Positions 1,354 to 52,700 of a DNA stretch of 64,000 bases are shown piece by piece (position 1 is the first letter of the stretch; each line of letters opens with the position of its first letter). Source of the stretch: Microgenomates group bacterium Gr01-1014_5 (GTDB lineage: Bacteria; Patescibacteriota; Microgenomatia; UBA8517; UBA10165); assembly GCA_007376395.1 (NCBI GenBank), contig VMGE01000003.1, positions 26,057 through 90,056 of the forward strand. Reading direction: 5' to 3'. The notes under the pieces are model-generated. The model was not told the origin of the DNA. It did no database searches and saw only the letters and a list, made by a program, of their open reading frames with translations. A program made the translations under genes and the position numbers.

Positions 1354-3582
1354 TCACAATCTTGCGTTTTTCAGCCTCAAAGAGTTGGCCACAACCGAAA
1401 TAGAGCTTGCGGCCATAGCAAAAGAGGCAAGCGCTGGACTTAACAGCCAACCGGTAAGGGGATATAAAACTCCCATGGCAACAGGAATTAAAATAATATT
1501 GTAGCCAAACGCCCAAAAAAGATTTTGGCGGATTATACCCATTGTCTTTTTTGACAAATCAACTGCCCGGGCTACTGAGCGCAAATCACGATTTATCAGT
1601 GTTATGTTTCCTGCCTCAATTGCCACATCAGTTCCGGATCCCATGGCAATTCCGACGTCAGAAGCGGCAAGAGCCGGGGCGTCATTTATCCCATCCCCGA
1701 CCATCGCCACCTTTTTACCCTCTGCCTGGATTTTTCTCACTTCGGCTTCTTTATCTTGAGGTAACACTTCTGCTAATACTCTTTTTATCCCTACTTGCCC
1801 GGCGATTGCTTTGGCAGTTCGCGCGTTGTCACCGGTAATCATGACAGTTTCAATTCCCATCTTTTGCAGAGCCAAAACTCCGTCTTTGGCAGTATCTTTA
1901 ACGGTATCGGCAACTGCAACCAGTCCTATAAGTTTACCGTCAACAGCAAGCATCATTACTGTTTTCCCAGCACTCTCCAATCCTACAAGGTGAGACCTTG
2001 TAGGCTCAATATCTATCTTCTCTTTTTCCATCATCTTTCTGTTTCCCAAAAACACTTTCTGCTTACCCACCATTCCCTCCACCCCATGCCCGGGAATTGC
2101 TTTAAACCCTGTAACTTTGTATAAGGCGACCCCTTGTTCATCTGCTTTTTTCACAATCGCCTCAGCCAGAGAATGCTCTGAACCTTTTTCCAAAGATGCA
2201 GCCAGTTGTAGCAGTTTTTCTTTTGTTACTTTTGCCTTGTCACTTGTTACTATATCCGTGACGATTGGTTTTCCGTTTGTCAACGTCCCTGTTTTGTCAA
2301 AAATAACGACATTGATTTTATTCGCTATTTCCAAACTCTCAGCGTCTTTAATTAAAATTCCATGTTCCGCCCCGCGTCCTGTACCAACCATAATGGCAGT
2401 AGGCGTTGCCAATCCCATGGCGCAAGGACAAGCAATAATCAAAACCGCGATACTGTTTAGCATGGCAAATAAGAACGCGCTTTGCTGTCCAAAAACATAC
2501 CAGCTAACAAACGTGGCTATGGCCAGCATGATTACAACCGGCACAAAATAAGAAGAGATTAAGTCTGCCAAGCGCTGGATTGGAGCCTTTGAGCCCTGAG
2601 CTTCCTCAACCAGTTTTATAATTTGGGCGAGTAAGGTTTCTTGTCCAACTTTTTCTGCTTTATAAAGAAAAGAGCCGGACTTATTCATTGTCGCCCCAAT
2701 AACCTTATCTCCTCTGGTTTTATCAACAGGAATACTCTCTCCGGTAACCATCGACTCGTCAATCGACGATTCTCCTTCGGTAATTACCCCGTCTACGGGA
2801 ATCTTTTCACCCGGCCGGACACGGATTATATCCCCTATCTGTACTTGGTCAATAGAGATGTCAATTTCTTTACCCGCTCTCACAACCCGAGCAGTTTTTG
2901 CCTGCAAACCAATTAATTTTTTAATTGCCTCGCTCGTTCCCGCCTTTGCTTTTGCTTCAAAATATCGCCCCAAGAGAATTAATCCAATAATTACCGCCGT
3001 CACATCAAAGTAAGGCATTGGTTCAATTCCGGCTTGAGAGACCATTTGAGGAAAAAAAGTTACAACAGTAGAATAGATAAATGCCACAGATGTACCCAGA
3101 GCTACTAAGGTGTCCATATTGGCCGTTCTGTGGCGCAAAGCGGGAATTGTTGCCCGGTAAAACGTGAGTCCTGCCCAAAATTGAACAGGCAGGGCAAGGA
3201 GAAACTGGACAATAAAGTCTTGCAAAAAACTAGGCGAGGTCTGAATCAGTCCCGGGAAACTACCCCAGACAATCGGCGCCGCAAGCCCGAGACTTACCAG
3301 CACTTTTGTTCTTAGATCCTTTAGTTCACGAGTTTTTTGTTCTTTCTCTTCATCCAACGTCTGTTCTTGATGTCCCACCATTGCTTTGTAGCCAACATTA
3401 GCAACGGCAGAAGCCAGCTTTTCGTCAGTTACTTGTCCGCCGCAAACCACAGTAGCTTTACCGGTTGCAAGATTGACGCTTGCGCGCTCCACGCCGGGAA
3501 CTTTTCCGAGAGATTTCTCCAAAATACGCACACAAGAGGCACAATGCATTCCTTGAATAGAAAAGGTTTTAGTTTGTGCCAT
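1354..3582 (-). CDS. copA: Copper-translocating P1B-type ATPase. The likely start is MAQTKTF at 3582; the ORF track extends to 3627.
   Basis: N-terminal HMA domain GMHCASC. CPC transmembrane motif [18 protein letters not shown] phosphorylation site. GDGINDAP hinge. Confidence 0.92.
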
Positions 3583-9511: not shown

Positions 9512-10129
9512 CTACTCCTTTGTCTTTTCAGGACCTTGGTTGCGGAAAGCATCAATAAATTTTATAATCCGTTCTTCGTCAAAATCATCCAGCTTATCTA
9601 TTCTCGTCCAGGCAGTCAAAGCAATGCGCGCGTCTAAAGCAGGTCGCGGGACAACAATTAACCTGTCTTCTCCTTTTTTCTTGTAAACCCCGGCAAGTTT
9701 GGCGACTAATTCTTTACATTCCGGTAAATCCCAATCTCCTCCGGAAATTGTTGCGCTTGGCGTACTTTCAGCCGAACCTGTTGCCTCATCCTCTCCTGTG
9801 TGCGCAAGGGCTTGCGGAATAAGATTAAAGCTTTGCGGGTGCACTTCGCAGTTGTAGCTTATGATGATATAGCCGTGTTCTAGCGAGTGAATTAAATATC
9901 CATCCTCCTTAACAGCACTATAAACCCCTTTTTTAACCCAATCCGCATAATGGTTACCTGAAGTTGGCGGGTTGGAATTATAATTAACTTTTGTTCCCAG
10001 AGGGACGTGTTCACGCCCCAAATCAGCCATAACTTCTCCCGTTAACGGTTTTGAGGCTCCGTACCACATCCAACCAATACCGGCAATTACTAAAATTGCT
10101 AAAACTATCCAAACAAAACTGCCTTTCAC
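9512..10129 (-). CDS. DUF3105-like membrane-anchored protein
   Basis: N-terminal TM helix; NPPTSGNHY and HSLEHGY motifs. Confidence 0.45.
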   Translation of the reverse strand: MKGSFVWIVLAILVIAGIGWMWYGASKPLTGEVMADLGREHVPLGTKVNYNSNPPTSGNHYADWVKKGVYSAVKEDGYLIHSLEHGYIIISYNCEVHPQSFNLIPQALAHTGEDEATGSAESTPSATISGGDWDLPECKELVAKLAGVYKKKGEDRLIVVPRPALDARIALTAWTRIDKLDDFDEERIIKFIDAFRNQGPEKTKE

Positions 10130-10485
10130 GGCATCAGTTTACCTTTCTTTTTGCTTTTAAGCAACGCGTGTGGATTCTACTTGACTCCTGTGCGACAACA
10201 GTATAATTTAGGTTGTGTCTGCAGAAAATTTTAGAAAAATTATCTCTTCTACTTTCGCGCGAGCCGCATTTGCAACCAGTTCTTTAGGTGAAGTAAACAT
10301 CACAAGAACATTAGCTCGTTTCGCCAGCGCAACAGAAGCTAGGAAAAAAGCACTTCTTGTAATTGCCCATCGCGCCGCCGCCGCGAGATTAAGAGAGAAC
10401 GTGATAAGAGATACCGAAAGATTCAACGAACACAGAGTAATGGAGGCAAATCTTAGTGGAATACCTTTTCGACAACAAAGAAAAA

Positions 10486-30293: not shown

Positions 30294-30370
30294 GGTGGCT
30301 AGGGTGGGAGTCGAACCCACAAACCTTCGACGTATGAAGTCGCTGCTCTAGCCAGTTGAGCTACCCAGCC
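30294..30370 (-). tRNA. tRNA with anticodon CAU (elongator Met or Ile2 type; the G1-C72 pair argues against an initiator)
   Basis: Hand-folded cloverleaf GGCTGGG-TA-GCTC-AACTGGCTA-GAGC-A-GCGAC-TTCATAC-GTCGA-AGGTT-TGTGG-TTCGACT-CCCAC-CCTAGCC-A-CC. A TATAAT box sits about 12 nt upstream. Confidence 0.8.
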
Positions 30371-30407: not shown

Positions 30408-31100
30408 TTAATTGTGCTGTTTTAAACCTTCAATTAATCCCATGATCTTATAATGTAGATAAGTAGTTTTTTGTGGACGAAGAGTTAATGTTCCGAAATG
30501 TTGTTCAAAATTCTCATAAAATTTATATAATTTCGAGATTTTAAAGTTTGTTTTTTGGAAATTTGATTGAGGTATTCCAGTTAATTCAGCCCAATAATCC
30601 TTAACTTTTTGTTCTCTTGAACGATGTATCTCATTAATTCCAATATAACAACTAATAAGAGTTTCGTCTATTTTGAAACACTTTTTGAGCCAATATAGGG
30701 CAAAGCTAATTAGTTTTGGGTCTGAATTACTAATTTCTAATCTACCCATTTTTTTGCTTCCTTCTCCCCAATAAAGCGCAAGTCCAGCAATCAACAACTC
30801 TCTTTCGTTTAAAGTTTTTAAACTGGATTTTCCTAAATTTTCAAATTTTTGTATAATGTCAAGCCTTTGATTTTTTAAAAATAATGAATGTATTAGATTT
30901 CCCCGTTCGCGACCTTTTATTTCTTTTTGTCTAAGTACTTCTAATTGTTCTATCGATAAAATAATGTCCCGAACCCAGATACTTGCAGTACCCTTTGAAA
31001 CAGCCAATTTAACAGCAATATCTTTAACACTTTTTCCCTGGGAACGAAGTTCTCGGGCTTTTAGTCTAAGCGCAGATTTAGCCACAACTAAGTTTCCCAA
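30408..31100 (-). CDS. Fusion of an HTH domain and a single-motif LAGLIDADG-like homing endonuclease (paralog A)
   Basis: N-terminal HTH ELRSQGKSVKDIAVKLAVSKGTASIWVR and an LAGLIDADG-like LIAGLALYWGEGSK. Paralogous to the ORFs at 41734..42423 and 48228..48908. Confidence 0.6.
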   Translation of the reverse strand: MGNLVVAKSALRLKARELRSQGKSVKDIAVKLAVSKGTASIWVRDIILSIEQLEVLRQKEIKGRERGNLIHSLFLKNQRLDIIQKFENLGKSSLKTLNERELLIAGLALYWGEGSKKMGRLEISNSDPKLISFALYWLKKCFKIDETLISCYIGINEIHRSREQKVKDYWAELTGIPQSNFQKTNFKISKLYKFYENFEQHFGTLTLRPQKTTYLHYKIMGLIEGLKQHN

Positions 31101-31136: not shown

Positions 31137-31565
31137 TCAATCTAAGTTTGCTACGACTAACTTGAATCCCTCTTTAGAATACCAACTGTCAAATGAGAAA
31201 ATATACTCTGCTCCAAGCTCAACTGCTGTTTCAGCAACAATTGCATCAAAAATGGTGTTTTTCTTAGAATTTGTACGACTAAACCTTTGACTAGCTAATT
31301 TTTGTATTTTTTCATCTATATACTCAATACTTAAAGTCCCTTGCAAGTAACGTGTATTAACAAGTTCGGCTTTGTCAGGTAAATTTAAAGCTCTTTTTAG
31401 AGTTGTGATTGTTTCTAAAATAGCGGTGTTTGGATAAACAACCTCATACCCCTGAGAAAGTAGCCATTTACTAATATTTTTAGCTTTAATATGGTTAGCA
31501 TCCTCTTTACACACTAAAGCGATGAGGGAGTCCGTATCACCGACTGCTATTTTACTTTTTGCCAT
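31137..31565 (-). CDS. PIN-domain toxin (VapC-like). Start at MAKSKIAV.
   Basis: Conserved acidic residues (IAVGDTDSLIAL...FDA...FSFD); overlaps the upstream RHH gene. Confidence 0.65.
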   Translation of the reverse strand: MAKSKIAVGDTDSLIALVCKEDANHIKAKNISKWLLSQGYEVVYPNTAILETITTLKRALNLPDKAELVNTRYLQGTLSIEYIDEKIQKLASQRFSRTNSKKNTIFDAIVAETAVELGAEYIFSFDSWYSKEGFKLVVANLD

Positions 31566-31827
31566 TACTCCTCTTTTCCCCACCCCAAGCATAATAGTCA
31601 TGATTTTCAGATATATCACTTGGAGTATTGGAGTTAGACGGCAATTTCTCTGCAAAGCTCGCAAGTTCAACTAAAGCTTTTACAGAACTAGATTTAGGGT
31701 AAATGACATCCAGACCGGTATTTAGAGCTTCCCGGATTAACTCGGATTCAATTTTTCGCTTGGCTTTTGCAGCTAGGTCAATCCTTTGCTTAGTTTCATC
31801 AGAAATATGTACGCTTATTCTTTGCAT
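31552..31827 (-). CDS. Ribbon-helix-helix (CopG/VapB-like) antitoxin
   Basis: ISVHISDETKQRIDLAAKAKRKIESELIREALN is a typical RHH fold. It overlaps the PIN gene. Confidence 0.65.
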   Translation of the reverse strand: MQRISVHISDETKQRIDLAAKAKRKIESELIREALNTGLDVIYPKSSSVKALVELASFAEKLPSNSNTPSDISENHDYYAWGGEKRSNGKK

Positions 31828-39625: not shown

Positions 39626-41386
39626 ACCAGGGCGGCCTTTAAAGATTTTATGGAAGAAAAACAAATCTATCTTCGCTATTTGGGGTATGTTCGCAAGAGT
39701 TCAGAAGATAACAAGGAGCGACAAGCCGCTTCCCTCCCCGAGCAGTTATATGTACTCGAAGGAATTAAAGCAAAACACAACTTAACTCTCGTTGATACTC
39801 TCCAAGAATCAAAATCGGCACACAAGCCTGGGCGGGAAATCTTTAACAATATGCTTGCCCGAATAGAGAGCAGTGAAGCAAACGCAATTTTAACCTGGCA
39901 CCCCAACAGGCTTTGCCGTAACGCACTTGATGCTGGACAACTTCTTTATCTCATGGACGAAGATAAATTAGTCGAAATTCGCACACCTTCGCGGACATAT
40001 CGAAATACCCCAGAAGACAAATTTATGTTGACCCTTGAATTTGGTATGTCCAAAAAAGACTCGGACGATAAAAGCATTGTTGTTGAAAGAGGTTTGGAAA
40101 AGAAAGCAAGGGACGGCTGGAGGCCAGGTGTTGCTCCACAAGGATACTTGAATGATAAAACAACAGAGAGTGGCTTTAGAAAGATACTGACTGACCCTGA
40201 AAGGTTGTCCTTTATTAAGAAAATCTTTGAGCTTTTTTCCAATGGAACTTCTGTAGTTGAAATCCACAGAATTGCCAAAGACGAATGGAAATTTCTCTCA
40301 AGACAAAAGAAACGAAGCGGTGGTATACCGCTTTCTTTGAGCATGATTTATAAGATGTTGACTAACCCTTTTTATTGCGGAAAGTTTGAGTATCCAGAAG
40401 GAAGCGGCAAATGGTACGAAGGCGCACACGAACCAGCAGTAGACCAAAAGATATTTGACGAAATACAGGTCAAATTAGGCCGCAGAAGCCAATACAAGCT
40501 CCAACATCACAACTTTGCCTATACAGGTAGTATGGTTCGCTGTGGTTCGTGTAATTCAAGCATAGTAGCCGAGCAAAAATGGCAGTGTATTTGTACCAAG
40601 TGCAAGCTAAAATTCTCGCTTACCAAGAAAAATAAAGAAAGGTGTACTGGTTGTGGGACTCTTATCAAGAATATGTCCGACCCAACTATTCTCCACTATG
40701 TCTATTATCGTTGCGGACGGAAAAAGAATCCGAATTGTAGGGAGCGTGCAGAAAGAGTTGATAGGCTTGAGAAGCAAATTGATGAAAAACTCTCTCAAAT
40801 TGAAATCTCACCCTTGTTTATGGACTGGGCAATACGCCAAATCCACAAGATGAATGATAGTAATAAAGATTTTACAGAAGAAGCCATAGAGAGCATTAAA
40901 CGAGCCCATGACGGATGCAGGGCAAAGCTTACTAACTTACTGCAACTTAAAATTTCACCTGCAAATAGCGATGGTGGCCTTATCAGCGACGAGAAATACA
41001 AGGAAGAAAAGGATAAATTAGAAATAGAGTTAAAAGGAGTAGAAAAACAACTTGTTAATACTGACGACAGAATGTTGCAGGCAAATGAAGAGACTGTAAA
41101 AGCGTTTACTTTTGTTGCCAGAGCAAAAGAAAGGTTTGCAACTGATGATTTGAAAATAAAACGAGATATTTTTTTGGGACTTGGGTCGCACCTAACTTTG
41201 CAAAATAAAACAGTCGGAATTATAGCACCAAAATACATTTATACGATCGAAAAAATGAAAGAAGCTGAGCCGATTATCGCAGAACGGGTCGCACCTGGAA
41301 ATCAGCCTGAATATACGCACCAAATGGAGACATATTTTGCCTCCAATCCTACTCTGTTGCGGGGCCGGGAGTCGCGCCCGGCCTAG
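39617..41386 (+). CDS. Large serine recombinase (phage-integrase type)
   Basis: N-terminal resolvase catalytic domain YLGYVRKSSEDNKERQAASLPEQ with the catalytic Ser. A recombinase domain, a Cys-rich zinc ribbon (CGSCNS...CTKCK...CTGCG) and a coiled-coil follow. Confidence 0.88.
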   Translation: MSTTRAAFKDFMEEKQIYLRYLGYVRKSSEDNKERQAASLPEQLYVLEGIKAKHNLTLVDTLQESKSAHKPGREIFNNMLARIESSEANAILTWHPNRLCRNALDAGQLLYLMDEDKLVEIRTPSRTYRNTPEDKFMLTLEFGMSKKDSDDKSIVVERGLEKKARDGWRPGVAPQGYLNDKTTESGFRKILTDPERLSFIKKIFELFSNGTSVVEIHRIAKDEWKFLSRQKKRSGGIPLSLSMIYKMLTNPFYCGKFEYPEGSGKWYEGAHEPAVDQKIFDEIQVKLGRRSQYKLQHHNFAYTGSMVRCGSCNSSIVAEQKWQCICTKCKLKFSLTKKNKERCTGCGTLIKNMSDPTILHYVYYRCGRKKNPNCRERAERVDRLEKQIDEKLSQIEISPLFMDWAIRQIHKMNDSNKDFTEEAIESIKRAHDGCRAKLTNLLQLKISPANSDGGLISDEKYKEEKDKLEIELKGVEKQLVNTDDRMLQANEETVKAFTFVARAKERFATDDLKIKRDIFLGLGSHLTLQNKTVGIIAPKYIYTIEKMKEAEPIIAERVAPGNQPEYTHQMETYFASNPTLLRGRESRPA

Positions 41387-41733
41387 GAGATTATGCATCT
41401 GTAATCTCTAATTACTCAGAGTGTCGGACTATATCTTCACCCCGATTAAATCGGGGGCTCGGCGTGTAGTCTCTACGGTGTCCCTCCGAAACTTTAGTGA
41501 AGGAGGGTTCCCTCGGTATTACCCTCTATAAGAGTAGGGTTTCACCGATATAGCCAAGTTATCAAGAAACATTACTGTTAAATGTGCCCAATTTGAGCCT
41601 CCTGTGCAACTCTACACTACCCCGCATGTCTCTTACCAACTGAATTATAACAGATGCAGGCTCGAATTAAAAGCCTCTTGACTACCAATAGAATAGCTGT
41701 TATGGTGATAGTTAAACCACATAACTTTATACA
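41387..41733 (+). other. Highly structured ~345-nt non-coding region with several perfect hairpins. Candidate ncRNA or attachment-site region.
   Basis: Hairpins CCCCGATT-taaa-ATCGGGG, CCCTCC-gaaactttagtga-GGAGGG and CTCT-ata-AGAG; no ORF; GC is higher than in surrounding intergenic DNA. Confidence 0.3.
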
Positions 41734-42423
41734 TTGATCAGGAAACCCCTAGAAAAACAAAAAGCTCAAGAGCTACGAAAGCAAGGCAAGAGTATCGGAG
41801 AAATAGCACAAGAACTTGGAATTTCAACCTCAACAGTTAGCTTGTGGGTAAGAAATATTACTTTAACAACTGAGCAGAAAAAACGGCTTGAAAATAAGGT
41901 GTTTACTACCCTACAGAAAGGTAGGATTATCGCCCAGGAGGTTCAAAAACAATTAAGAGACAATCTCAAAAGAGAAATCTCTGCCGAAGCCGTACTACAA
42001 CTCGGAAAACTCTCAAAAAGAGACCTTTTTATTGCCGGAATTATCCTATATTGGACAGAGGGTTTTAAAAAAGATAATCGGTTAGGATTTGCAAATTCCG
42101 ACCCACAAATGGTCAAGTTATTCTTAAAATGGCTTTATACCTTGGGAGTACCAAAAAATAGTATCCGTTTAAGAGTTGGGATAAATATTAGCCACAAAAA
42201 GAGAGTTAAGGTTATAGAAAAATATTGGTCTAAACAAACCAACATCCCCCTTTCTCAATTTCAGAAGCCCTTTTTTCAAAAATTTATATGGAAAAAAGAA
42301 TTTCCTGATCCAAACTTATACCATGGAGTTATAAGAGTGCGTGCCATAAACCAAGGCAGATTGTTCATAAAAATACTTAAATGGATAGCATTGGTAAGAA
42401 CTTCAAATAATACTTTGCTATAA
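41734..42423 (+). CDS. HTH plus LAGLIDADG-like homing endonuclease fusion (paralog B; TTG start)
   Basis: ELRKQGKSIGEIAQELGISTSTVSLWVR HTH; FIAGIILYWTEGFKK. Confidence 0.6.
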   Translation: MIRKPLEKQKAQELRKQGKSIGEIAQELGISTSTVSLWVRNITLTTEQKKRLENKVFTTLQKGRIIAQEVQKQLRDNLKREISAEAVLQLGKLSKRDLFIAGIILYWTEGFKKDNRLGFANSDPQMVKLFLKWLYTLGVPKNSIRLRVGINISHKKRVKVIEKYWSKQTNIPLSQFQKPFFQKFIWKKEFPDPNLYHGVIRVRAINQGRLFIKILKWIALVRTSNNTLL

Positions 42424-42429
42424 TAAAGT

Positions 42430-42780
42430 GTGGCTCTGGTTCTAATAGCTCTCTTCTGGTTTTGGCCAATACTTCTTTCCTTTGCCACAATTTTTATTTA
42501 CGGATTACTGACCCAAAAAATCGGGAACGAAAGGTTTGTATATTTGGTAATTATTAGCTTGGTTTTGGCACCAATTGCGCTATCTGCACAAGCCTTCTAT
42601 GTTTGCGGGTTGGATATTGACTATTACCATAATTGTAGCTTGAGCGAACGCTTAAACGAGGTTAGTAAATTTCTTCCTTCGATTATTAGAGGTTCAACTT
42701 TTTTATTAAGCGGTGTTTACTTTTCAATTTTTTACCTCGCAATACTTGCTAAACACTTAAAAAACAAGTACTTGCATTAA
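42430..42780 (+). CDS. Hypothetical membrane protein
   Basis: ORF track; 3 TM helices. Confidence 0.4.
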   Translation: MALVLIALFWFWPILLSFATIFIYGLLTQKIGNERFVYLVIISLVLAPIALSAQAFYVCGLDIDYYHNCSLSERLNEVSKFLPSIIRGSTFLLSGVYFSIFYLAILAKHLKNKYLH

Positions 42781-43227: not shown

Positions 43228-44094
43228 ATGGCTACAACTAAAACATTAACCGATTTAAAACTGGACTTTGTTCGTAATCTTGAAAATACAGGACGTGCCT
43301 CAGCTACCATTCTAGCTTACAGAAAAGACCTTGAGCAACTTATTGAGTATTTAGAAAAACAAGGGAAAAACACCATTGAGCCTATCAGACCTCTCGACAT
43401 CGAGGCTTTTCGTGATTCCTTAAGGAGCCAAAATTATACTGACAAATCAGTCTCCCGCAAGCTAAACGCGGTCAAAACTTTCTTTGGCTGGCTGGTAACC
43501 CAGAAAATTTTAGAAAATGACCCAGCAGCGCCCGTTGCCCACCCCCGCTACGAGAATCCACCCCCAAGAATTCTTACCCGCATGGAGTACAGGGCTTTGC
43601 GTGACGCCGCCCGCGGAGATTTGCGCATTAGCGCTATTATCGAGTCAATGCTGCAAACCGGAATCCGTATTGGCGAGGTTTCCAATCTAAGACTAGAGGA
43701 CGTCCAAGGAGATAAAATTTTAATCAAGGCGTATGAATCTCAACCAGAACGCGAGATTCCCTTAAACGAGCCGGCAAAACAAGCTTTACATCAATACTTA
43801 GCAATCCGCCCCAAGGCACAAACTACTCACGTCTTTGTGACTAAAACAGGCCGTCCGCTACTCGTCCGCAACATAAGGAGTGCTATTGACCGCTATTTTA
43901 AAGAAGCCGGCATAGAAGACGCCAAAGTAAACGACATGCGCAACACCTTTATCGCCCACCAACTAAAGTCGGGTGTCGATATTGTCACGGTCTCCAAAAT
44001 TGCCGGGCACAGAAGACTCTCAACCACAGAGCACTATCTTCAGTTTGTTGAAAGAAAAGAGTCCCGCCGCGGAGCAAAACTAGACGAGCTCTAA
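43228..44094 (+). CDS. Tyrosine recombinase (XerC/XerD-like)
   Basis: R...H-x-x-R...Y pattern: GIRIGEVSNLRL, ...HQLKSG..., and C-terminal IAGHRRLSTTEHYLQ. Confidence 0.85.
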   Translation: MATTKTLTDLKLDFVRNLENTGRASATILAYRKDLEQLIEYLEKQGKNTIEPIRPLDIEAFRDSLRSQNYTDKSVSRKLNAVKTFFGWLVTQKILENDPAAPVAHPRYENPPPRILTRMEYRALRDAARGDLRISAIIESMLQTGIRIGEVSNLRLEDVQGDKILIKAYESQPEREIPLNEPAKQALHQYLAIRPKAQTTHVFVTKTGRPLLVRNIRSAIDRYFKEAGIEDAKVNDMRNTFIAHQLKSGVDIVTVSKIAGHRRLSTTEHYLQFVERKESRRGAKLDEL

Positions 44095-45881
44095 ATAATT
44101 CCGCATAGATATAGCGCTCTTCTTTGGTTTTGGCTATATTGATCCATATTACCCCAAATAAATGATTTTTCAATTGACCGAACTTCTTCTTTAGAATAAG
44201 TCTGCCCTCCCATAGAATAACCATTAGAATACATGTACCGAATCCCATGATCTTCCGCCCTATTAGTGGGGTGATCGGTATGATTTCCCGAGCGAGTTCC
44301 CAACTCAATTGCTAATTTAACAGTTTGCCATGTAGCCTCCCAACTATCTCTATCCCAAGCCCACATCCCTCCCGTGTGGATTCGAAAACCTAACCTCTTT
44401 AATGTATCCACAACTGCAACATCTCGAACTTTTGAAGCAAGAACCTCCCTGATAGATTGCAAACCGTTATTAAACTCAGTCGCACTAACAACCCCTGCAG
44501 GAAAAAGACTGTAAGCCTCTGACGCTAAATCCTGAATTGTATGGTTCTTAAAGTACTCTTGAAGGTCTATTCCCTCCCAAAGATTCCATATGCTTTCCCA
44601 GAGAGCATTATTTTTTGTGTCGTATACCTCAAGACCTTTTTGATATCTTATTCGATCAAACAATCCATCTCCTATTTCCCTCTTCATGTATTGCACAAAA
44701 CTAGACTTGTCGTCTTTAACTCTTTCAAATAGCTGATTAATCGTCACCGGTGAAAGAGACTGGTCATACTTAATTCTGGTTATTCTCTCTTCTTGTAATT
44801 CCTCTCCTTGTAAACTTTGAGTTTTTCCACCTTCAACAAATACGCTTCCTTCTGGCATTTCAAAACTTCCACCAACGGGCAGTTCCCAAAAGGAATCAAC
44901 TGTATTAAGCTGGGTTGGTTTACCGTTGGCTTCCAAAGCTGACTTAAAAGGGATAATAACAGCATATCCAGCTCCTTCCCAGGAACCATACATATGAGAC
45001 ACAACCGGGTGGTTCATTGAAAAATGTAGTGTTGTGCGAGGAGATAAACCTCTTGTTGAATCAAAGGTAGAGCGAATTTCATATCGCCCAGTTTCAGGAT
45101 TCATTACTGGTTTAAACCTTGTCAAGTGCACACAAACCAACTCCTCTACTTTTAAGGCTTCCTGGGTGACTGGAAAATTTTTGGAGTGCTCGAGAAGTTT
45201 TTCATTTGCTTGGGCGTCTCTTTCTTGGTCATGTTTTTCTAGCTGAGCCAACTTTTCAGAAGATAAAGTTTTCGCAGCTTCATCACCTATTAACAAAAGC
45301 ACTGCTAAAACCTCGCCTTCTCTTTTGTTTTCCTTATTAGCCGCAACTCCGTTTGTATCAACAATATTTCCAGCTACTACCCTATCAATTAAATCTCTAA
45401 CTTGCGGGGTAAACTTCCAATTAACCACTGTTAATTTTCTTGCTTCTCTAATTTGAGAATCATTCCCGCCCAAATGGAAATATAAATCCAGTAAACCCTG
45501 AGGGCTTGATTCAACAAGAAAAGTCGCTTTTCCGTCGTTTAAAGCTTTTTGGTATTCAGGACCGCTCGATCCGCTTGTTTGTTCGCTTTTAATTATTCTG
45601 GCAGCTTGGGGTACTTTTTCTTGTCCTTCACGGGTTTTTAAGCTTCCTACGGGTACAACCAATCTATCTTTTACCAAATCCCCGCCACTGGTCGGTTCAC
45701 CGCGGCTAAAAAATATAGCTTCGACTTTTTGCCCCTGTTTCGTTGTAAATTCGTAAGCATAAATCGCTCTTCCCTCCTCGTCAACCCCTTCTCTTCTTTG
45801 GAAAGGATATTCTTTCGGAGGTTCTGACGGCTTAATTAATTCACTTTGTGAAGCAGTTAATGTTTCAGCTACTTCTGGCAT
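44091..45881 (-). CDS. Large hypothetical cytoplasmic protein (596 aa)
   Basis: ORF track; no TM helices; no motif I can recognise. Confidence 0.5.
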   Translation of the reverse strand: MPEVAETLTASQSELIKPSEPPKEYPFQRREGVDEEGRAIYAYEFTTKQGQKVEAIFFSRGEPTSGGDLVKDRLVVPVGSLKTREGQEKVPQAARIIKSEQTSGSSGPEYQKALNDGKATFLVESSPQGLLDLYFHLGGNDSQIREARKLTVVNWKFTPQVRDLIDRVVAGNIVDTNGVAANKENKREGEVLAVLLLIGDEAAKTLSSEKLAQLEKHDQERDAQANEKLLEHSKNFPVTQEALKVEELVCVHLTRFKPVMNPETGRYEIRSTFDSTRGLSPRTTLHFSMNHPVVSHMYGSWEGAGYAVIIPFKSALEANGKPTQLNTVDSFWELPVGGSFEMPEGSVFVEGGKTQSLQGEELQEERITRIKYDQSLSPVTINQLFERVKDDKSSFVQYMKREIGDGLFDRIRYQKGLEVYDTKNNALWESIWNLWEGIDLQEYFKNHTIQDLASEAYSLFPAGVVSATEFNNGLQSIREVLASKVRDVAVVDTLKRLGFRIHTGGMWAWDRDSWEATWQTVKLAIELGTRSGNHTDHPTNRAEDHGIRYMYSNGYSMGGQTYSKEEVRSIEKSFIWGNMDQYSQNQRRALYLCGII

Positions 45882-45933: not shown

Positions 45934-47844
45934 TTATTCCGTTCTCTTTTGGCTTACTGCTCCGGGGATTTTTTCCCAATCGCGATTCTTCCTTACTTTT
46001 AAGTTCTTGTTCCAAATAGACTCAAATACAGATAAATCCACTTGTAAAGCTCGAGCTAAGCCCAAAAAACCAACAAGGTCTTTAGGAAAACAGTTATGGA
46101 CAACTGCATCTGCTAAGACGTATGTGTGATTTTTACTAACCTCAAAGTTATAAACTTTTCCTTCATAATCAACCTCAGTAATTTCTTTAATAGGTATAAA
46201 AAAGAAGTCTTTCTCGAAAAAAGAAGTCTTACGTAGAAGTTTAAGGTCTTTTTCTAGTTTGTCGTCGATAATCTGACTAAATTTCTGAATATCGGAATAA
46301 TTCCTAATCCTAATAAAGTAGGCTGTCTTATGATTTACTCCATCCCTACCTGTTCTCTCTTGTGCGATCCTGGTAGAAAAACCAATTTCCAAGCTTAGTA
46401 AAATCAATTTTAATTGATAAAATAAATCCTGAGAAATAGTCGCCATACTATAAACTCCGGTTGATTTGCTACCGTCACCTCTAAAATAACCTTTCATAAA
46501 CTCAGTTAAACCCTTTCTGTTTGATGATAAAATTTTTACACTTAGACGTTTTTTCGCACTCATTTTACCGCAATTTTCCTCAAGTAAGTTAGCTAGTTTC
46601 TGTGAACTACACCGTAGATTAAGTGCATTTCCTACCCCTCTTCTGTGTGTAACTAAGCTGAAATTCAGCTTCAATATTTTCTCAATATCCTCTACATAAG
46701 TAGATTCGTTTTTGTGGAACCCAAATGTTATTCTGTTTTTCACACCTATGTGTCCCTCTGCTACATAATATCCAAAGAGCCGCATAACACTATTATTAAA
46801 ATTTTTCGTACCATTTTTAACTTTAGGTAAAACTATAAAATCTCCTTTTTGTAATTCTCGAGCTGGTACCCACTCTAAATTAAGATTGCCGTTATAATTA
46901 GTAAGCTTTTGTCTTTTAATTCCATTATATTTTCTTCCGGTTTTTACAGCATATACAGGATGTTCACTTGTAAGGGTAAATCCCTGCAACCCCTGTCCTC
47001 TTATAAAAATAAGTTTCTCATTTACCTCTCTTTCGTGCCTTTCTAAAACTTTTTGACAACTTCCATCTATTGTTAGAACAGAATCGCCAAATTCTACTTC
47101 TCGAACGAATTTTATTCCTCCGTTTACATAGACTTTTGTTTCAGGATGTAAACATTTCCCGCCAAATCCCATATCCCCGTCCGGGCCGGGAACTTTCAAA
47201 TGCCCTCCAATTCTCGGGTCTGCCTGTACCATTTCGCGGACATCGTCATAATTTACTTTTAATTTATCTGCTAAACCATGTATTTCATTTGCCAAAATAA
47301 TTTTGGCGGACAATAGCGCGTTGGAAGCAAATTTTGCAAGTTCAACAGTCGTTGGATCACTTAAGAAATATTTCGCGTCCTGGGGGTAAATTGCCTCGTA
47401 TAAAGCCTTGATTCTTTCAGCGATACTTTTATCAAGAGCTCCTATCAAGGTTCTGTCTGGGTGTAAAAAGTCATTTTCTGGCTGTTTTTCAGTTAAAAAT
47501 TCGGGGTTGAAGGCAAAATTTACATTAGAATATTTTTCGCTGAAACTTTTAGTTGTTCCGGGGATAACTGTTGATTTGATAATTAATACTTTTTCCGTAT
47601 TAACCAAAAGTGGAGCAAAATTACTGACTGCCTCCTCTACTACAGAAATATCTGTTCCGGAATAATCAGAAAACATAGGTGTGGGGACACAGACAAATAG
47701 AAAATCTGAAGCCTCGACCAATTCTTCGACACTTAGCCCGCCTTCTTTATATGGGTCGTGCCACGCAACCTCGTGTGAGCTTTGAAAACCCTTACCTGTT
47801 GCTTGTCCTACAACTCCCCAACCAATAATACCAACCTTTGCCAT
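45934..47844 (-). CDS. Nucleotide-sugar (UDP-glucose/GDP-mannose) dehydrogenase-family protein interrupted by an intein. The C-terminal extein is unusually short (52 aa).
   Basis: N-terminal Rossmann GIIGWGVVG, and a catalytic-site GFGGK-[C...VVHN]-CFPKD split by the intein. Confidence 0.8.
   Translation of the reverse strand: MAKVGIIGWGVVGQATGKGFQSSHEVAWHDPYKEGGLSVEELVEASDFLFVCVPTPMFSDYSGTDISVVEEAVSNFAPLLVNTEKVLIIKSTVIPGTTKSFSEKYSNVNFAFNPEFLTEKQPENDFLHPDRTLIGALDKSIAERIKALYEAIYPQDAKYFLSDPTTVELAKFASNALLSAKIILANEIHGLADKLKVNYDDVREMVQADPRIGGHLKVPGPDGDMGFGGKCLHPETKVYVNGGIKFVREVEFGDSVLTIDGSCQKVLERHEREVNEKLIFIRGQGLQGFTLTSEHPVYAVKTGRKYNGIKRQKLTNYNGNLNLEWVPARELQKGDFIVLPKVKNGTKNFNNSVMRLFGYYVAEGHIGVKNRITFGFHKNESTYVEDIEKILKLNFSLVTHRRGVGNALNLRCSSQKLANLLEENCGKMSAKKRLSVKILSSNRKGLTEFMKGYFRGDGSKSTGVYSMATISQDLFYQLKLILLSLEIGFSTRIAQERTGRDGVNHKTAYFIRIRNYSDIQKFSQIIDDKLEKDLKLLRKTSFFEKDFFFIPIKEITEVDYEGKVYNFEVSKNHTYVLADAVVHNCFPKDLVGFLGLARALQVDLSVFESIWNKNLKVRKNRDWEKIPGAVSQKRTE
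46093..47154 (-). mobile_element. Intein (354 aa) with a LAGLIDADG homing-endonuclease domain, inserted at the catalytic Cys of the dehydrogenase
   Basis: Begins with Cys (CLHPE...) and ends ...VVHN followed by a +1 Cys. Contains LAGLIDADG-like LFGYYVAEGHIG. Confidence 0.75.
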
Positions 47845-48101
47845 TATTTTTGTGTCCTTAATGAGGTTATCTCCTCGTCTAATGTATGTATATATCCTTC
47901 CAAAACCTTAATCTGTGAGTATTTTATTTCAGAAGATGCGTTTTCGTGCCTGACGCCATGAAAATACTTGTAACGCTCTGTGAGTTCTGCCTCAGCTTCC
48001 ACTCTTTTCTTTTCAAGCTCCTTAATTCTTTTACCCGGCGCCATTTTACGCAAAGCTATAATTTCCTTAATTGTTGTTCTCTTGGGACGATAATTAGGCA
48101 T
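47844..48101 (-). CDS. Small hypothetical protein
   Basis: ORF track. Confidence 0.4.
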   Translation of the reverse strand: MPNYRPKRTTIKEIIALRKMAPGKRIKELEKKRVEAEAELTERYKYFHGVRHENASSEIKYSQIKVLEGYIHTLDEEITSLRTQK

Positions 48102-48125
48102 AGTTTACCCTGAGTGAAACCGAAA

Positions 48126-48203
48126 GGTGGGCCCAGTTGGACTCGAACCAACAAAACCTTCTAGGTATAAGCTAGACGCTCTGGCCAATTGAGCTATGGG
48201 CCC
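48126..48203 (-). tRNA. tRNA with apparent anticodon UAU (Ile, AUA-decoding type) and an atypical 7-nt variable region
   Basis: Hand fold GGGCCCA-TA-GCTC-AATTGGCCA-GAGC-G-TCTAG-CTTATAC-CTAGA-AGGTTTT-GTTGG-TTCGAGT-CCAAC-TGGGCCC-A-CC. A TAAAAT box sits about 13 nt upstream. Confidence 0.7.
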
Positions 48204-48227
48204 CAACCATGGCTATTTTATCATATT

Positions 48228-48908
48228 TCAAGTCCGAAGTCTCCTGACATATTCGTCAGATACAACCTCTATGCTCATTAAAATCTTCTCGATCAGATCC
48301 CTGCCGTTTACTATCAAATTACAAGTGCCGTGACCGATACCCTTATAAGTTAAGCCTCGTAGTGTTGTTTCTTTTATATAAGGTTTTATAAATTTGCCCT
48401 CAGGAATCCTTAGCTCCTTACTCCAAAATGCAATTTCCATCTTTTGATCCATATCTTTATATAGATGCAACCTAATAGTTATTTTATCTTTTGGAACTTT
48501 AAGAATTTTAATTAGCCAGTAAAGAAAAAATTTTACTACTTTAGGATTAGTGTTACTCAAACTCGTTGCAAATGGCGTAGTCTTTGCTCCCTCACCCCAA
48601 TAAAGAAATAGTCCTGCAATTAACAGTTCTCGCTTCGTTAAGGGCAGTAATAATTTCTTTTGGTGGTCATATACAGCTTTCCGTCTAGTAGTAGTTTTTA
48701 TTCTCCATGTCTCTCTAAATCTCTCAATACGTTTTTCGCTATTTGCCCTCAGTTTATTTATTTGCTCTCTACTTAGAGGATATCCGCGAAGCCACAAACT
48801 AAGACTGCTTTTACTTACTTGAAGTTGTTCTTTTATATATGAATAGCTAAAACCTTGCTTCCTTAATTCTAAGGCTTGAAGTCTCTTCTCAGTCAGTGGA
48901 GCAACCAT
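48228..48908 (-). CDS. HTH plus LAGLIDADG-like homing endonuclease fusion (paralog C)
   Basis: ELRKQGFSYSYIKEQLQVSKSSLSLWLR HTH; LIAGLFLYWGEGAK. Confidence 0.6.
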   Translation of the reverse strand: MVAPLTEKRLQALELRKQGFSYSYIKEQLQVSKSSLSLWLRGYPLSREQINKLRANSEKRIERFRETWRIKTTTRRKAVYDHQKKLLLPLTKRELLIAGLFLYWGEGAKTTPFATSLSNTNPKVVKFFLYWLIKILKVPKDKITIRLHLYKDMDQKMEIAFWSKELRIPEGKFIKPYIKETTLRGLTYKGIGHGTCNLIVNGRDLIEKILMSIEVVSDEYVRRLRT

Positions 48909-48967
48909 ATAAACCAGTAAATACTAAATAAGAAACTACTAATTTAGTGTACGAATAATTGGGGGTA

Positions 48968-49011
48968 ATGTCAATTAGAGCTTCGCGCTACCACCACTGA
49001 GCTACGGGCCC
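48968..49011 (-). pseudogene. tRNA-like 5' fragment (GGGCCCGTAGCTCAGTGGTGGTAGCGCG...) resembling the 5' half of the adjacent intact tRNA
   Basis: About 23/28 identity to the 5' end of tRNA 48126..48203. No convincing anticodon or T arm follows. Confidence 0.45.
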
Positions 49012-49026
49012 GTGCCTGCAATTATA

Positions 49027-49434
49027 TCACTCCATGCCATTAGATTCTAGCTTCGCAAAGGCTTTCTGAAGTTTTTCATCGAATGTTGCAAATTTATCTG
49101 CATTGTTTTTCTTTGCATAAAAAAGATTGAAGGAATCTGGTAAATTAAATCTTGTTGTAGAATAGTGCTCAACAGCCAGAGTTAGTGACTCTCTATAATC
49201 AAGTTGAATAAACTTTAGGTCTAAAATTTGTCTCAATTCTTTCACTAATTCCCTTCTGTCTTTTTTATAGACGCTTTTCAACACCCAATAAACTTCAAAA
49301 ATTACAATAACAGAAGTAAAAAGTTTAACTTCTTCTTTCGCCCCCCTTAAAAGAAGTTTTTCTGCTTGTTTATGTTGAGAAAGATTATCTTTTAGAAGAA
49401 AGCGCAAGAATAAATTAGTATCAATAAAGATCAT
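49027..49434 (-). CDS. PIN-domain toxin (VapC-like)
   Basis: MIFIDTNLF... first-strand Asp and downstream acidic residues; overlaps the antitoxin gene by 4 nt. Confidence 0.75.
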   Translation of the reverse strand: MIFIDTNLFLRFLLKDNLSQHKQAEKLLLRGAKEEVKLFTSVIVIFEVYWVLKSVYKKDRRELVKELRQILDLKFIQLDYRESLTLAVEHYSTTRFNLPDSFNLFYAKKNNADKFATFDEKLQKAFAKLESNGME

Positions 49435-49709
49435 TTTTCGTATTTTGCAGAATAATGTTCTTTAATTGCCAATTCTATAATCTCATCATCGCTCATTCCT
49501 CTAAATCTCTTTGGCTTCTTTACAGACCCTGCAAGACGTTTAACTAAAGCAACCGCAGACTCGACTTTTAAAATTCCATTGTCTTCATTGACTACAACTC
49601 TATCCCCCACTTTAAGCCCTGCTTTTCTGAAGACTTTTACAGGAATTGTAAGTTGTCTTTTACTGGTAATAGTAGCCATTGACATTGTAAGGAAATTATA
49701 TAAAAACAA
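49431..49709 (-). CDS. AbrB/MazE/SpoVT-type antitoxin
   Basis: SKRQLTIPVKVFRKAGLKVGDRVVV swapped-hairpin motif. Confidence 0.7.
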   Translation of the reverse strand: MFLYNFLTMSMATITSKRQLTIPVKVFRKAGLKVGDRVVVNEDNGILKVESAVALVKRLAGSVKKPKRFRGMSDDEIIELAIKEHYSAKYEK

Positions 49710-49763
49710 GGAAATATTGTCAAGGTAAGGAAAATTTTGAGTCTAATATATAATGAAAACTTT

Positions 49764-52700
49764 TTAAGAAAGTAAAGTTCCTGTTTGTTTGCTTAAGATT
49801 ACTGCGTTTAAGTCATGATATCCGCCAAACCAACTCATTAAACCCCCCAAAGTATCGCTGTATTCAGAAGTATTGTTGCTTGGCGGCAAATATACGCTTA
49901 CCGTACGCTTGTCGGAATTAAACCCTGCTTTTGCCGCTTCTTGGGGGAGAAGTGAAACCGTCTTTGAACTGTCTGCGCCGGTGGCGACAACTATTTCACT
50001 TCCTACAACCAACACAGCGCCAATTGCTTCTGCTTTTTCCAAAGCAAGGCGAATTATAGCACGGTAAATATCTGGCGTCTCGGAAGCGGTGTAGACCGGC
50101 TCAAGCAAGATTGCCGGTTGTTTTTGCCCATCATTTGTTTGAATGTGAGTCAATTTGGCCATTGCACGACCCAGCACCTCTCTTCTCTCGTTTTCCACAT
50201 TAAAAACGCGCTTATTGGCGTCCACCACATAAGCCGGCAAGCAATAGTTGAATGCTCCACCCCGCCAAGACTGACATGTTTCCCGAGGCTCAATTCCCGC
50301 TTTCAATAAAGCTACCGGGTCGTCCGAATCGTATGCCCGCAAGACAGCAACAGTCTCTAATTTTGCTTGGGTAGTAAACACTTTTTCTATTTGATCCAAA
50401 TCCCGCATGGGCTGTTCCAGACCGGACAGTACACCCATAGCGCTCTTTGTTTTTGCCGCGATTGATAAAATATCTTGAGGTTTAAGCGAATCAGGGCTTG
50501 CCGATTCAAGCTGAATAAACCCTTCAATTAAGCGCAGTTCGGCGTCAACAGACCGCTTTCTTACACCTAGTTCTCTTTTCTCATCCTCTTGGGAATTTGC
50601 TTTTATCTCTCTGATCAGGGTTTTTTGCATTTCTCCAAGCTGACGAGCCCTGTCCGGCGAAAAGTCTACTTTATATATATCCTGAACATGAGCCCGCGCT
50701 TCACCAACAATGCGTTTTATAGCGTCAACCGTGGCTTGGCGCGCCTCCGCTCCTTTTTGCGCCTGAACACTCAAGACTACCTCTGGTACCGGTTCGAGCC
50801 AAGCATTCCTCTTGTCTTCTGCTAAAATACTAAGCTGTTCTTTAGACGCCTCAAGGCCCTCTCTCCACGCCTTAAAATCTCCAAAGACAATATGCCTGCC
50901 TATTTCCCGCACCACCCCTTCTTCACTTGAACGGGATAACTTACTCATTTGAGATAGAAGACTGGGTATTATTTCAACAATATTGCTCTCGACTAAATAA
51001 GGAAGTTTCTCATTAACTAAAGCTTTCTCAGCTTCTCCCAACTCCATCTTTTCTGCAACAACGGCAACAACTTTTTCTTTAAGATCGGCAATTGTTTCCT
51101 GAAGCGTAGCTTTGGGGTCGTAAGAAAATTTACCCAATCCGTCTAACGTTTGTAACAGCCGGAAAACTTCCCTTACTCTGGCCGAATCTTCCCTAGCACC
51201 TGTGACAAAACCCAAAACAGACTCTGCAATTTCCCTACCGTTTTCTTTTCCGCTCAACATCAACAGACCCTCAGACATGGCGTTTCTGGCCATTATGCCC
51301 ACTTTCAAGTCCCGTGTATTATAAAGTTCGCGCAACTTAGCAATTAAGGCTTCGTCTAATTTAATTCCTTCGCGAGCAACAATTTCAGGAAACCAAGCGT
51401 AATTGCCATTTTCAGGGTGAACAAGAGCTTTAAAAATGTCAGGTGTGTTAATTCTCCAATCCGCAACACCGCTGGCTGCAACTACCGGCGCAACGCTCTC
51501 GATATTTTGTATTAATAAGTCTTCTACTTTATTAGTAGTGTCTGCCCAACCACCAGCAAAGAAAAATGCGCGCAATTCAGTATCAGTTAAATCTACCCCT
51601 TGTTGTTTACCAATAGTTTTGGCAATTTGGGTCATTTTTTCCAGCGCGAGATATTTTGGAGCTTGCGAGAGAAGACCTGACATACCATAACCATCAAATT
51701 GCTGATAAACACTGTCGCGATTCAGCAACCACTCGGTTATAATCCGTTTATCAAGAGGAGAAGAAGCTTCTATGACTTTATGTAAATCTTCTTGTGTAAG
51801 CGGGTTTTGAGCTATTTTATCTATTGTATAGGCAACTGAATTACTTGTATGCCCACCCGGAAAACGCCGAAGATATTCTATCAAGTGCGGTATTGCGCGA
51901 GGGTCGCGCATAAGATAAAAACAATGACTTGCACTCGTTCCGTCCCAACTTTCTGCTCTCCCATTAAAGAGATCTTGTAAGAACTTTATGTGAACAACAT
52001 CATATAAAGCTCTTGTTTGTTCAGGAGTTGGATTAATCGCTTCCCATTCTTCTTTCTGAAAATCTTTCATCACCCTATATATTGCTTCACCTTTAGCATG
52101 AAACGAATCGGGTAAAAGTTGTGTAAAGTAAGTAAACTGGTTCGACTTATTTTCATAATCTGTCTGTAGTTTTGTAATTTGCTCGAATGTTGCTTGATAA
52201 GCTTTTTTGGTGTCATCGTCTGAAACTGCCGTTGCTAATATTTTGATTGATTCTGCCATTTTCAAACCTTCTTTGTAAGGAAACTTACCTACAATATCCT
52301 TGCCAAACAAATCGCGACCGTATCTTCCTAAAGCTTCAAGACAAATTTCCTGAAGTTCCACTTTTACTTGCTCCATGCGTTGATATAATTCAGAATTTTC
52401 TTCCCGGCGTTTTGGCGAAAACAAAAAGTGCTGTGTCATTGCAACTGCTCTAAATGCCTGAAGGGTGCTTTTGTATGCTTCTTCCGGATTTTCCACTCCA
52501 TCCCTATCAAATTTATGCCGCCTTGACCATATTTCTTCATTTTGTTTGTCTAAAAATAATTGCAGTTTCTCGGTATTTACAGGATCTCCCTGAACCGGCA
52601 TAAACTCAGCACTTGCTACCCCGAAAGGAGACAGCGCAAGGTCAACATCTTCTCGAACAATATTTCCCGGTTTAAGTACAAATCTTAATAAAGGGTTTTT

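Follow-up and report, generated by a model that had tools for sequence, protein, structure and literature searches.

The ORF C locus and its orphan tRNA 5' half

We analyzed a 64-kb window of the Microgenomates group bacterium Gr01-1014_5 genome (64,000 nucleotides (nt) of contig VMGE01000003.1, hereafter the window), with a focus on one open reading frame (ORF), called ORF C, and on the tRNA sequences that flank it. The loci compared were the window, read here on the minus strand, the matching contigs of sister strains, and relatives of the ORF C locus, which carry L numbers. On the minus strand the window has in order a PIN/VapC gene (49434..49027; Pfam PIN, E = 3e-13), a tRNA-like piece, ORF C, a tRNA-Ile(UAU) gene and the gene p85, an ORF of 85 amino acids. 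The earlier note on this DNA, made from the sequence alone, had correctly placed a complete tRNA at 48126..48203 and a minus-strand ORF at 48228..48908. The former was called as tRNA-Ile(UAU) by ARAGORN (66.1 bits with the Rfam tRNA model; anticodon arm TCTAG-CTTATAC-CTAGA) and the latter encodes ORF C, 226 amino acids (aa) long, a putative site-specific endonuclease or DNA-binding protein.

The tRNA-like piece opens with GGGCCCGTAGCTCAGTGGTGGTAGCGCG at 49011 and scored 14.4 bits against a tRNA 5'-half profile, for which the first 36 nt of tRNAs from loci of the comparison set were used. None of 200 dinucleotide shuffles of the window reached this score, the best of them attaining 13.4. The earlier note had drawn the piece from 48968 to 49011; it is real, but the comparison with sister strains described below restricts its tRNA-derived part to the 33 nt GGGCCCGTAGCTCAGTGGTGGTAGCGCGAAGCT (49011..48979), which are nt 1-33 of a resident tRNA-Ile(UAU) gene and end at U33. 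The rest (48978..48968) is cassette DNA that includes the -35 box of ORF C. An extended -10 promoter, TGATATAAT (49021..49029), overlaps the TGA stop codon of the PIN/VapC gene and sits 9 nt 5' of this orphan. Sequences of the form TGNTAWAAT occur 22 times in the window against 8.9 expected, and one is found 9-17 nt 5' of all three tRNA genes.

As the earlier note had observed, no anticodon or T arm follows the orphan. The resident 3' half (nt 34-74) was not found anywhere in the window with a 3'-half profile or with a search for CGGGCCC, a motif present only within the orphan itself. The orphan and the adjacent tRNA agree at 13 of their opening 14 nt, but at only 24 of 34 over the whole 5' half. 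This is the background level, since the mean match of the orphan to the tRNAs of the comparison set was 23.8 for Ile, 24 for Met, 24.5 for Ala and 23.1 for Val (per 34 nt), and blastn-short aligned orphan and neighbour with an E value of 3.7. The orphan is thus not a copy of the neighbouring tRNA, contrary to the claim that it duplicates the first ~28 nt of that gene. Pairing of the orphan with the 3' half of the intact tRNA was ruled out as well, the anticodon stems being CGAAG and CTAGA.

The covariance-model search suggested in the earlier note gave no complete tRNA with an intron, and the Rfam tRNA model left the fragment uncalled, even when the search range ended at the orphan's end. An intron-containing tRNA or a group I intron at this locus was ruled out, as Rfam returned nothing at E <= 10; in particular RF00028 had no match in 47800..49400, while the same library detected an intron elsewhere in the window, at 41405..41605. 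The doubt that the earlier note had cast on a group I intron was thus justified. We also considered that the sequence after U33, CUAAUUG, might be the remnant of the 5' end of a group I intron, given its likeness to CAAAUUG of the intron in the window; this idea was dropped because CUAAUUG is made up of the joint and the conserved -35 box of ORF C.

The resident tRNA-Ile(UAU) gene is intact in sister strains

The DUF8128 gene that neighbours the locus has a 98% identical relative, P0241, on contig ORJL010722605.1 (L106). The order there is DUF8128, a 1018-aa protein, MazE, PIN, 102 nt and p85, and ORF C is absent. The 102-nt gap holds an intact tRNA-Ile(UAU) gene (L106 6640..6713) that reads GGGCCCG...CGAAGCTTATATCTTCG... 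and is composed, when split after nt 33, of GGGCCCGTAGCTCAGTGGTGGTAGCGCGAAGCT and TATATCTTCGAGGTCGATGGTCCGAGTCCATCCGGGCCCA; in the empty alleles 14 nt separate it from the p85 start codon. An identical PIN protein is encoded on eight contigs, of which three are occupied like the window and five are empty (L110 type, L111 and L112). All five empty contigs, which come from three sources (an NCBI assembly, JGI metagenome 3300027819 and run ERR2108714), carry the same intact tRNA-Ile(UAU) gene and lack ORF C. The start of the intact gene in L106 and L110-L112 is identical to the orphan at 33 of 33 positions, and in L110-L112 it is also preceded by TGATATAAT. A second ORF-less relative, L107 (DUF8128 89% identical), has its tRNA-Ile(UAU) at 10092..10169. 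The comparison with orthologous loci lacking the ORF, which the earlier note had recommended, thus revealed the undisrupted gene in L106 and L110-L112 and bore out its view that a mobile cassette had landed in a tRNA gene.

BLAST collinearity between L106 (483-6672) and the window (55166-48979) ends exactly at U33. The left joint is therefore exact (48979|48978), and the right joint lies somewhere in 48102..48125. Because the occupied form is also present in independent assemblies, the junction is not an assembly chimera. The two haplotypes diverge by 8-12% on average, in a mosaic of 88-92% and 100% identical tracts. The identical tracts are 52326..51727 and 49835..48979 (857 nt, ending at the tRNA break), and their presence within the more divergent background points to frequent and recent recombination between the two lineages. 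The 857-nt tract may date the cassette event or may have been refreshed later. On the other side of the cassette p85 is a resident gene, with 93% nucleotide identity to L106 as compared with ~56% protein identity to L003. Import of the orphan by the p1017-VapBC block was ruled out, as the empty allele has this block together with an intact tRNA.

The resident 3' half pairs with the orphan in both the acceptor stem (GGGCCCG/CGGGCCC) and the anticodon stem (CGAAG/CTTCG). Since the occupied allele has lost this half, the empty allele cannot be derived from it, and the change clearly ran from empty to occupied. It is nearly certain that a cassette took the place of the 3' portion of this resident gene.

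The cassette carries its own tRNA-Ile(UAU)

The cassette measures ~0.87 kb (48102..48978, minus strand) and is not present in L106 or L110-L112; ORF C is the sole protein-coding gene inside the replaced segment. After U33 the window continues with CTAA, a joint of 4 nt, which is followed by the promoter, leader and coding sequence of ORF C, by the promoter TGATAAAAT of the tRNA, by the complete tRNA-Ile(UAU) and by a 24-nt spacer that leads to the start of p85. The ORF C promoter is of the sigma-70 type (TTGACA, 17 nt, TACACT; 48946..48974; 10/12 matches) and abuts the break. The tRNA promoter, an extended -10 box at 48215..48223, lies 11 nt 5' of the tRNA, and a TAAAAT box is kept at the same position in L003, L009 and L013. 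The spacer (48102..48125), which holds the right-hand joint, contains a TTCGG..CTCAGGG motif found in L003 and L107 and not in the empty allele L106. This motif is common to relatives of the locus, and the promoter and leader are likewise conserved 5' of ORF C relatives.

The leader (48909..48945) has no unusual RNA fold (z = 0.56). It carries repeated TTAGTA/TAGTA-like boxes, frequently with TGAATT just past the -10 box, and equivalent boxed leaders were seen in L003, L009, L018, L027, L030, L071, L077 and L081. These boxes could be an autoregulatory operator bound by the helix-turn-helix (HTH) domain of the ORF C protein.

The 3' half of the cassette tRNA, TATACCTAGAAGGTTTTGTTGGTTCGAGTCCAACTGGGCCCA, differs from the resident TATATCTTCGAGGTCGATGGTCCGAGTCCATCCGGGCCCA in the anticodon stem, the variable loop, the T stem and nt 66, and it pairs with its own 5' half; the arm TCTAGCTTATACCTAGA belongs to this cassette-linked gene. 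The tRNA is 87% identical to that of L003, the locus of the closest ORF C relative (75% identity for the ORF). These sequence comparisons show that the adjacent intact tRNA is foreign in origin and is a distinct allele that came with ORF C. Taken with the empty alleles, this means that a cassette with its own tRNA replaced nt 34-74 of the resident gene. The earlier note had read the pattern as a target-site partial duplication in which the tRNA was reconstituted from the target; both parts of this reading fail, as the downstream tRNA is a complete, different allele and the resident nt 34-74 are gone. The ORF-less tRNA-Ile(UAU) alleles of L106 and L107 have the same anticodon stem, CGAAG/CTTCG; among ORF-linked alleles a variety of other stems is found. 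In these two ORF-less cases the common stem gives a hint as to target specificity.

ORF C is linked to tRNA-Ile(UAU) across Patescibacteria

ORF C has at least 938 relatives, the best with 75-76% protein identity. We surveyed 80 species-representative genomes of Patescibacteria (Microgenomates, Parcubacteria, Berkelbacteria, Doudnabacteria and others), using ARAGORN to call tRNAs. A tRNA-Ile(UAU) was called beside the ORF C relative in 77 of the 80 species, in 76 of them on the same strand. The tRNA of L073 (2187..2262) is the only neighbouring tRNA-Ile(UAU) of the 80 loci on the opposite strand. In L019 and L052 a tRNA is visible but interrupted by a run of N or a contig end, and the L078 contig stops at the ORF. 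The metagenome loci that reach past the ORF all have a tRNA-Ile(UAU) within ~30 nt of its stop codon (16/16), and a metagenome scan with ORF C as the lone protein query returned one partial locus (L097). We found no earlier report of the pair in the literature.

The ancestral Microgenomates neighbourhood consists of DUF8128, tRNA-Ile and an Xer-like gene on the opposite strand, and the presence of the cassette next to DUF8128 is explained by the location of this ancestral tRNA-Ile. Among 12 Microgenomates loci, tRNA identity tracks neither ORF C identity nor DUF8128 identity.

Broken tRNA genes recur at other ORF C loci

Scars comparable to that of the window were found at other loci. In L027 (Shapirobacteria) a 5' half that was not called as a tRNA, and that is preceded by a TGGTATAAT box, lies between DUF8128 and the promoter of the ORF, the same position as in the window. 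This orphan best matches tRNA-Ile(UAU) genes (29/33) and diverges from them past CTCT(TA). L030 keeps the 5' half of a tRNA that is intact in its sister L071 (28/33); past nt 33/34 there are a 12-nt spacer and then a complete tRNA-Ile of another sequence, whose identity to the tRNA of the more distant L081 is 89%, and the downstream flank is unaltered. In L077 an orphan 3' half lies directly behind the intact tRNA. The closest relatives of ORF C are without any orphan tRNA piece.

The 5' orphans of the window, L027 and L030, the three known cases, all break at nt 33-35. By a rough estimate the probability of this coincidence arising by chance is ~0.002, with the proviso that orphan detection favours fragments that retain at least ~27 nt of the 5' half. 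As the three orphans are independent, we take their common end to argue for a site-specific break.

Two further arrangements were seen around tRNA-Val genes. In L075 (2221..2431) a tRNA-Ile is followed by an orphan 3' half and a Val-like 5' half, and these by a complete tRNA-Val(GAC) and another 3' half. The Val-like 5' half (GGGCGAT...) can pair with the second of the 3' halves (...ATCGCCCA). An 11-bp helix, UCCCGCCCUUU/AAAGGGCGGGA, encloses the whole tRNA-Val gene. This arrangement is either a tRNA gene nested in another or a split, rearranged tRNA. In L024 a tRNA-Val-like 5' portion with no recognisable T arm (2333..2363) lies between two tRNA-Val(GAC) genes.

Two paralogues of ORF C lie beside CAU tRNAs, one of which has a group I intron

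The window contains two paralogues of ORF C. Paralogue A (30411..31085, minus strand; ~35% identity) lies upstream of a tRNA-Met(CAU) gene at 30294..30370. Paralogue B (41734..42423, plus strand; ~34% identity) is divergent from an unusual tRNA, here called tRNA(CAU)* (41352..41626, minus strand), whose D arm is short, whose T-loop reads CGCGACU and which has a U1-A72 pair; ARAGORN missed this tRNA. Its exons (41626..41596 and 41395..41352) are separated by a group I intron of 200 nt (41396..41595; Rfam RF00028, 68.2 bits). This intron is ORF-less and is located between U33 and C34, which is the break site of the tRNA-Ile scars.

L106 has an intronless tRNA(CAU)* (9194-9268) whose sequence is 100% identical to the exons of the window. 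It also lacks the 1151-nt block (41630..42780) that lies in the window between DivIC and the tRNA(CAU)* promoter and holds paralogue B and a 116-aa ORF (42430..42780, plus strand); 37 nt are found there instead. In five other genomes a single A-type ORF has tRNA-Met at its 3' end and, upstream, a tRNA(CAU)* that contains a group I intron, and in L009 an intronless tRNA(CAU)* and tRNA-Met are 50 nt apart with no ORF between them. The intronless, ORF-less sites of L009 and L106 indicate that ORF and intron were gained or lost together.

A PIN-domain (VapC-type) gene lies directly 5' of the ORF C locus and likewise of paralogue A (31137..31670, minus strand). Some VapC toxins cleave tRNAs, and the juxtaposition of a PIN gene and a tRNA at both loci may or may not be meaningful.

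Architecture of the ORF C protein

In the ORF C protein an N-terminal HTH domain (HTH_23-like) is followed by a long helix and, at the C terminus, by an alpha/beta domain with a LIAGLFLYWGEGAK motif (LYWGEGxK). The AlphaFold model (predicted local distance difference test score, pLDDT, of 83) has the same organization, with a three-helix HTH. E106, G107 and K109 of the motif are invariant in 19 sequences of the three paralogue types. In the model the motif region comprises a helix (92-104) followed by a strand (114-119), and the motif is two residues longer than canonical LAGLIDADG.

Other insertions in the window haplotype

As compared with the sister strain, the window haplotype has five insertions inside ~14 kb. 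A 596-aa ORF (44091..45881, minus strand) between a dehydrogenase gene and the Xer-like gene has no family match and is not in L106. The dehydrogenase (UDP-glucose/GDP-mannose dehydrogenase; 45934..47844, minus strand) contains an intein with a LAGLIDADG_3-type domain at ~46045..47150; the ORF is 636 aa long, and the intein-free gene of the sister strain encodes 284 aa.

A proposed homing-type element that brings its own target

We propose, with a probability of about 0.6, that the ORF C cassette is a mobile element of the free-standing homing type, which cuts tRNA(NAU) genes within their anticodon loop and supplies a replacement tRNA. The ORF C protein would recognise the quasi-palindromic anticodon-arm DNA of an ORF-less tRNA-Ile(UAU) gene and cut it near U33|34. 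Cassette-bearing DNA would then serve as the repair template, and the ORF would be copied together with its linked, presumably uncuttable tRNA allele. Where homology is available on one side only, the other end would be joined at the break, leaving an orphan 5' or 3' half. The resident tRNA-Ile(UAU) gene of the window, just behind the VapBC (MazE/PIN) module, was broken between U33 and nt 34; the p85 side would have been repaired by homology and the other side by end-joining at the break. The incoming complete tRNA preserves AUA decoding, leaving the cell one functional tRNA for this codon, and the resident promoter and nt 1-33 persist as the orphan. The spare tRNA would do for ORF C what a self-splicing intron does for endonucleases encoded within introns, and paralogue B would use the intron solution at the same tRNA position.

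The locus displays several traits of a homing cassette: a presence/absence polymorphism at one site (three occupied and five empty contigs), one defined target position in three cases (U33|34, with L027 and L030 at nt 33-35) and linkage of the ORF to a travelling variant of the target tRNA. The proposed mechanism would also explain the linkage in 77 of 80 species, because each copy of the ORF lands beside a tRNA-Ile(UAU) by construction. That ORF C acts as the nuclease is somewhat favoured by the odds.

Several results weigh against this proposal. No nuclease family was detected in ORF C: Pfam gave only HTH_23, at a sub-threshold 21.6 bits, NCBIfam and PHROGs gave only HTH-level matches, a PDB profile search gave HTH matches only (E >= 0.1), and hhalign against I-CreI gave a probability of 0.2%. 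Foldseek searches of the model against PDB and BFVD were uninformative, and the topology of the C-terminal domain in the model (a-b-a-b-a-b-b-a) appears to differ from the alpha-beta-beta-alpha-beta-beta-alpha core of textbook LAGLIDADG proteins. Because no method recognises a nuclease family, 'homing endonuclease' is kept as a working hypothesis and not as a family assignment. ORF C identity tracks DUF8128 identity across the 12 Microgenomates loci (Spearman 0.65, p = 3e-9), and so ORF C appears to have spread mostly by vertical descent or transfer among close relatives and not by free hopping. The donor of the cassette is not among the database sequences, the closest having 75-76% protein identity. 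Since no scar is left by classical homing, the proposal has to assume a repair that was imprecise and one-sided. Finally, Val-like orphan halves occur near the ORF-tRNA cluster of L075, and therefore some breakage of tRNA genes in genomes of the candidate phyla radiation (CPR) occurs independently of the ORF C protein.

The same event could have taken place with no dedicated nuclease, if foreign DNA entered these recombining populations and was integrated through one-sided homology and an illegitimate joint, ORF C being a passenger and a WhiA-like DNA-binding regulator of its tRNA. Much of the above agrees with this account, which we regard as unlikely but worth serious consideration: recombination is frequent, as judged by the mosaic of window and L106; ORF C mostly follows the DUF8128 phylogeny; its sequence matches no nuclease family; its promoter and leader are conserved, with TTAGTA boxes as a possible operator; and the transcription factor WhiA is among the structural neighbours ranked best for the ORF C model. 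WhiA has lost its catalytic residues, whereas the LAGLIDADG-like motif of the ORF C family has an invariant acidic residue. WhiA is not known to show an insertion polymorphism, unlike ORF C. Moreover, random illegitimate joints would scatter, but three independent 5' halves break within U33 to A35, at the intron site, and the joint gain or loss of ORF B and the intron is expected of an endonuclease-intron partnership. Junction clustering and this co-polymorphism speak against an event without a nuclease.

Integration of the cassette by a tyrosine recombinase, with the anticodon loop as attachment (att) site, is quite improbable. A candidate enzyme is at hand, as a conserved Phage_integrase/Xer-like gene (43228..44094 in the window) lies a few kb downstream at Microgenomates loci, and anticodon loops are known integrase targets. 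However, this gene is outside the inserted segment and is 96% identical in the empty allele, and the cassette has no flanking direct repeats, orphan and intact tRNA matching at only 24 of 34 positions. Integrase elements restore the tRNA via its 3' part and leave a displaced 3' fragment; here there is none, and a whole second gene is found instead.

Still less probable is that the orphan is functional in itself, as one part of a split tRNA with the 3' half supplied in trans, or as a tRNA-like leader or small RNA made from the promoter that it has kept. Its extended -10 promoter is intact at the correct spacing and a comparable promoter-bearing orphan exists in L027, but the same 33 nt are part of an ordinary contiguous tRNA in the sister strains, the 64-kb window has no matching 3' half, the leader fold is ordinary and the closest ORF C relatives are without such a piece. 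Our search of the literature on split tRNAs in the CPR returned nothing relevant.

Hardly any credence is left for a literal target-site partial duplication, made of the 5' segment of the element and the 3' part of the target, or for ORF C within a group I intron: the 13/14 match over the opening 14 nt is offset by background identity over the whole 5' half, the 3' half of the intact tRNA is unlike the resident one throughout and covaries with the 5' half of the same gene, a ribozyme core is lacking, and the duplication model is already refuted by the empty-allele comparison.

Relation to known mobile elements

The closest precedent for a homing-type ORF C cassette would, by analogy, be SegB of phage T4, a free-standing homing endonuclease in a tRNA gene cluster (PMC2330249; review PMC3984707). 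In both cases the gene adjoins its presumed target without interrupting it, displays a presence/absence polymorphism, is co-inherited with its neighbours and has a tRNA setting. SegB is a phage enzyme of the GIY-YIG family with demonstrated activity, whereas ORF C is a putative, unclassified protein with an HTH and a weakly LAGLIDADG-like domain, encoded on a CPR chromosome. Unlike SegB, the ORF C element always carries one specific complete tRNA, and the event in the window left a truncated target and no clean conversion.

Paralogue B and the A-type relatives recall collaborative homing, an arrangement of ORF and intron (PMC3984707, PMC6083498), in that the ORF lies beside a tRNA(CAU) with an ORF-less intron at U33|C34 and both are present or absent together. 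ORF C differs in being intron-free, with protection or compensation apparently provided by a second complete tRNA, and these elements target tRNA genes in CPR hosts. Introns bearing homing endonucleases are found in the ribosomal RNA (rRNA) genes of the CPR (PMC9297842), where RNA genes of the same organisms are invaded by endonuclease-associated mobile DNA; those introns encode recognisable endonuclease families, while the ORF C element is intron-less and tied to a tRNA and its protein is unclassified. WhiA is a bacterial transcription factor composed of degenerate LAGLIDADG domains and an HTH (PMC3240954, PMC11701221); it has two LAGLIDADG-like domains and a C-terminal HTH, in contrast to the single domain, N-terminal HTH and invariant acidic motif residue of ORF C. 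The cassette further resembles tRNA-integrated islands in its tRNA landing site, the tRNA fragment at its boundary and the break in the anticodon loop, but it has no integrase and no att repeats, left a 5' orphan and not a displaced 3' part, and brought a whole tRNA gene.

Genomic islands and prophages can integrate in tRNA genes, and integrase att sites lie in anticodon or T loops. The ORF C cassette would seem, somewhat more probably than otherwise, to represent a different route into such genes, a new variant of free-standing homing in an uncharacterised, CPR-wide protein family. It is possible, and we put this forward tentatively, that ORF C and its paralogues form a previously unrecognised CPR-wide group of tRNA-gene-specific endonucleases that cut AUN-decoding tRNA genes (Ile-UAU, Met/CAU) at U33|34, in the DNA of the anticodon loop, and persist through two alternative self-protection devices that co-occur within a single genome; one of these would be a replacement copy of the essential tRNA, linked to the ORF ('bring-your-own-target' homing).

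This reading accounts for the fact that an HTH protein family almost always precedes tRNA-Ile(UAU), the AUA decoder, across Patescibacteria. Orphan tRNA halves in CPR genomes could then be read as scars and not as assembly noise or split tRNAs, and the ORF C protein, if active, would be a candidate for a new sequence-specific nuclease scaffold. A selfish element may, in this manner, invade an essential single-copy RNA gene without an intron by bringing a spare copy of the gene it destroys. If true, ORF C and its paralogues would form a series of living intermediates on the way to a partnership of endonuclease and intron, and the polymorphism relative to the sister strain makes the origin of such partnerships directly testable in one system.

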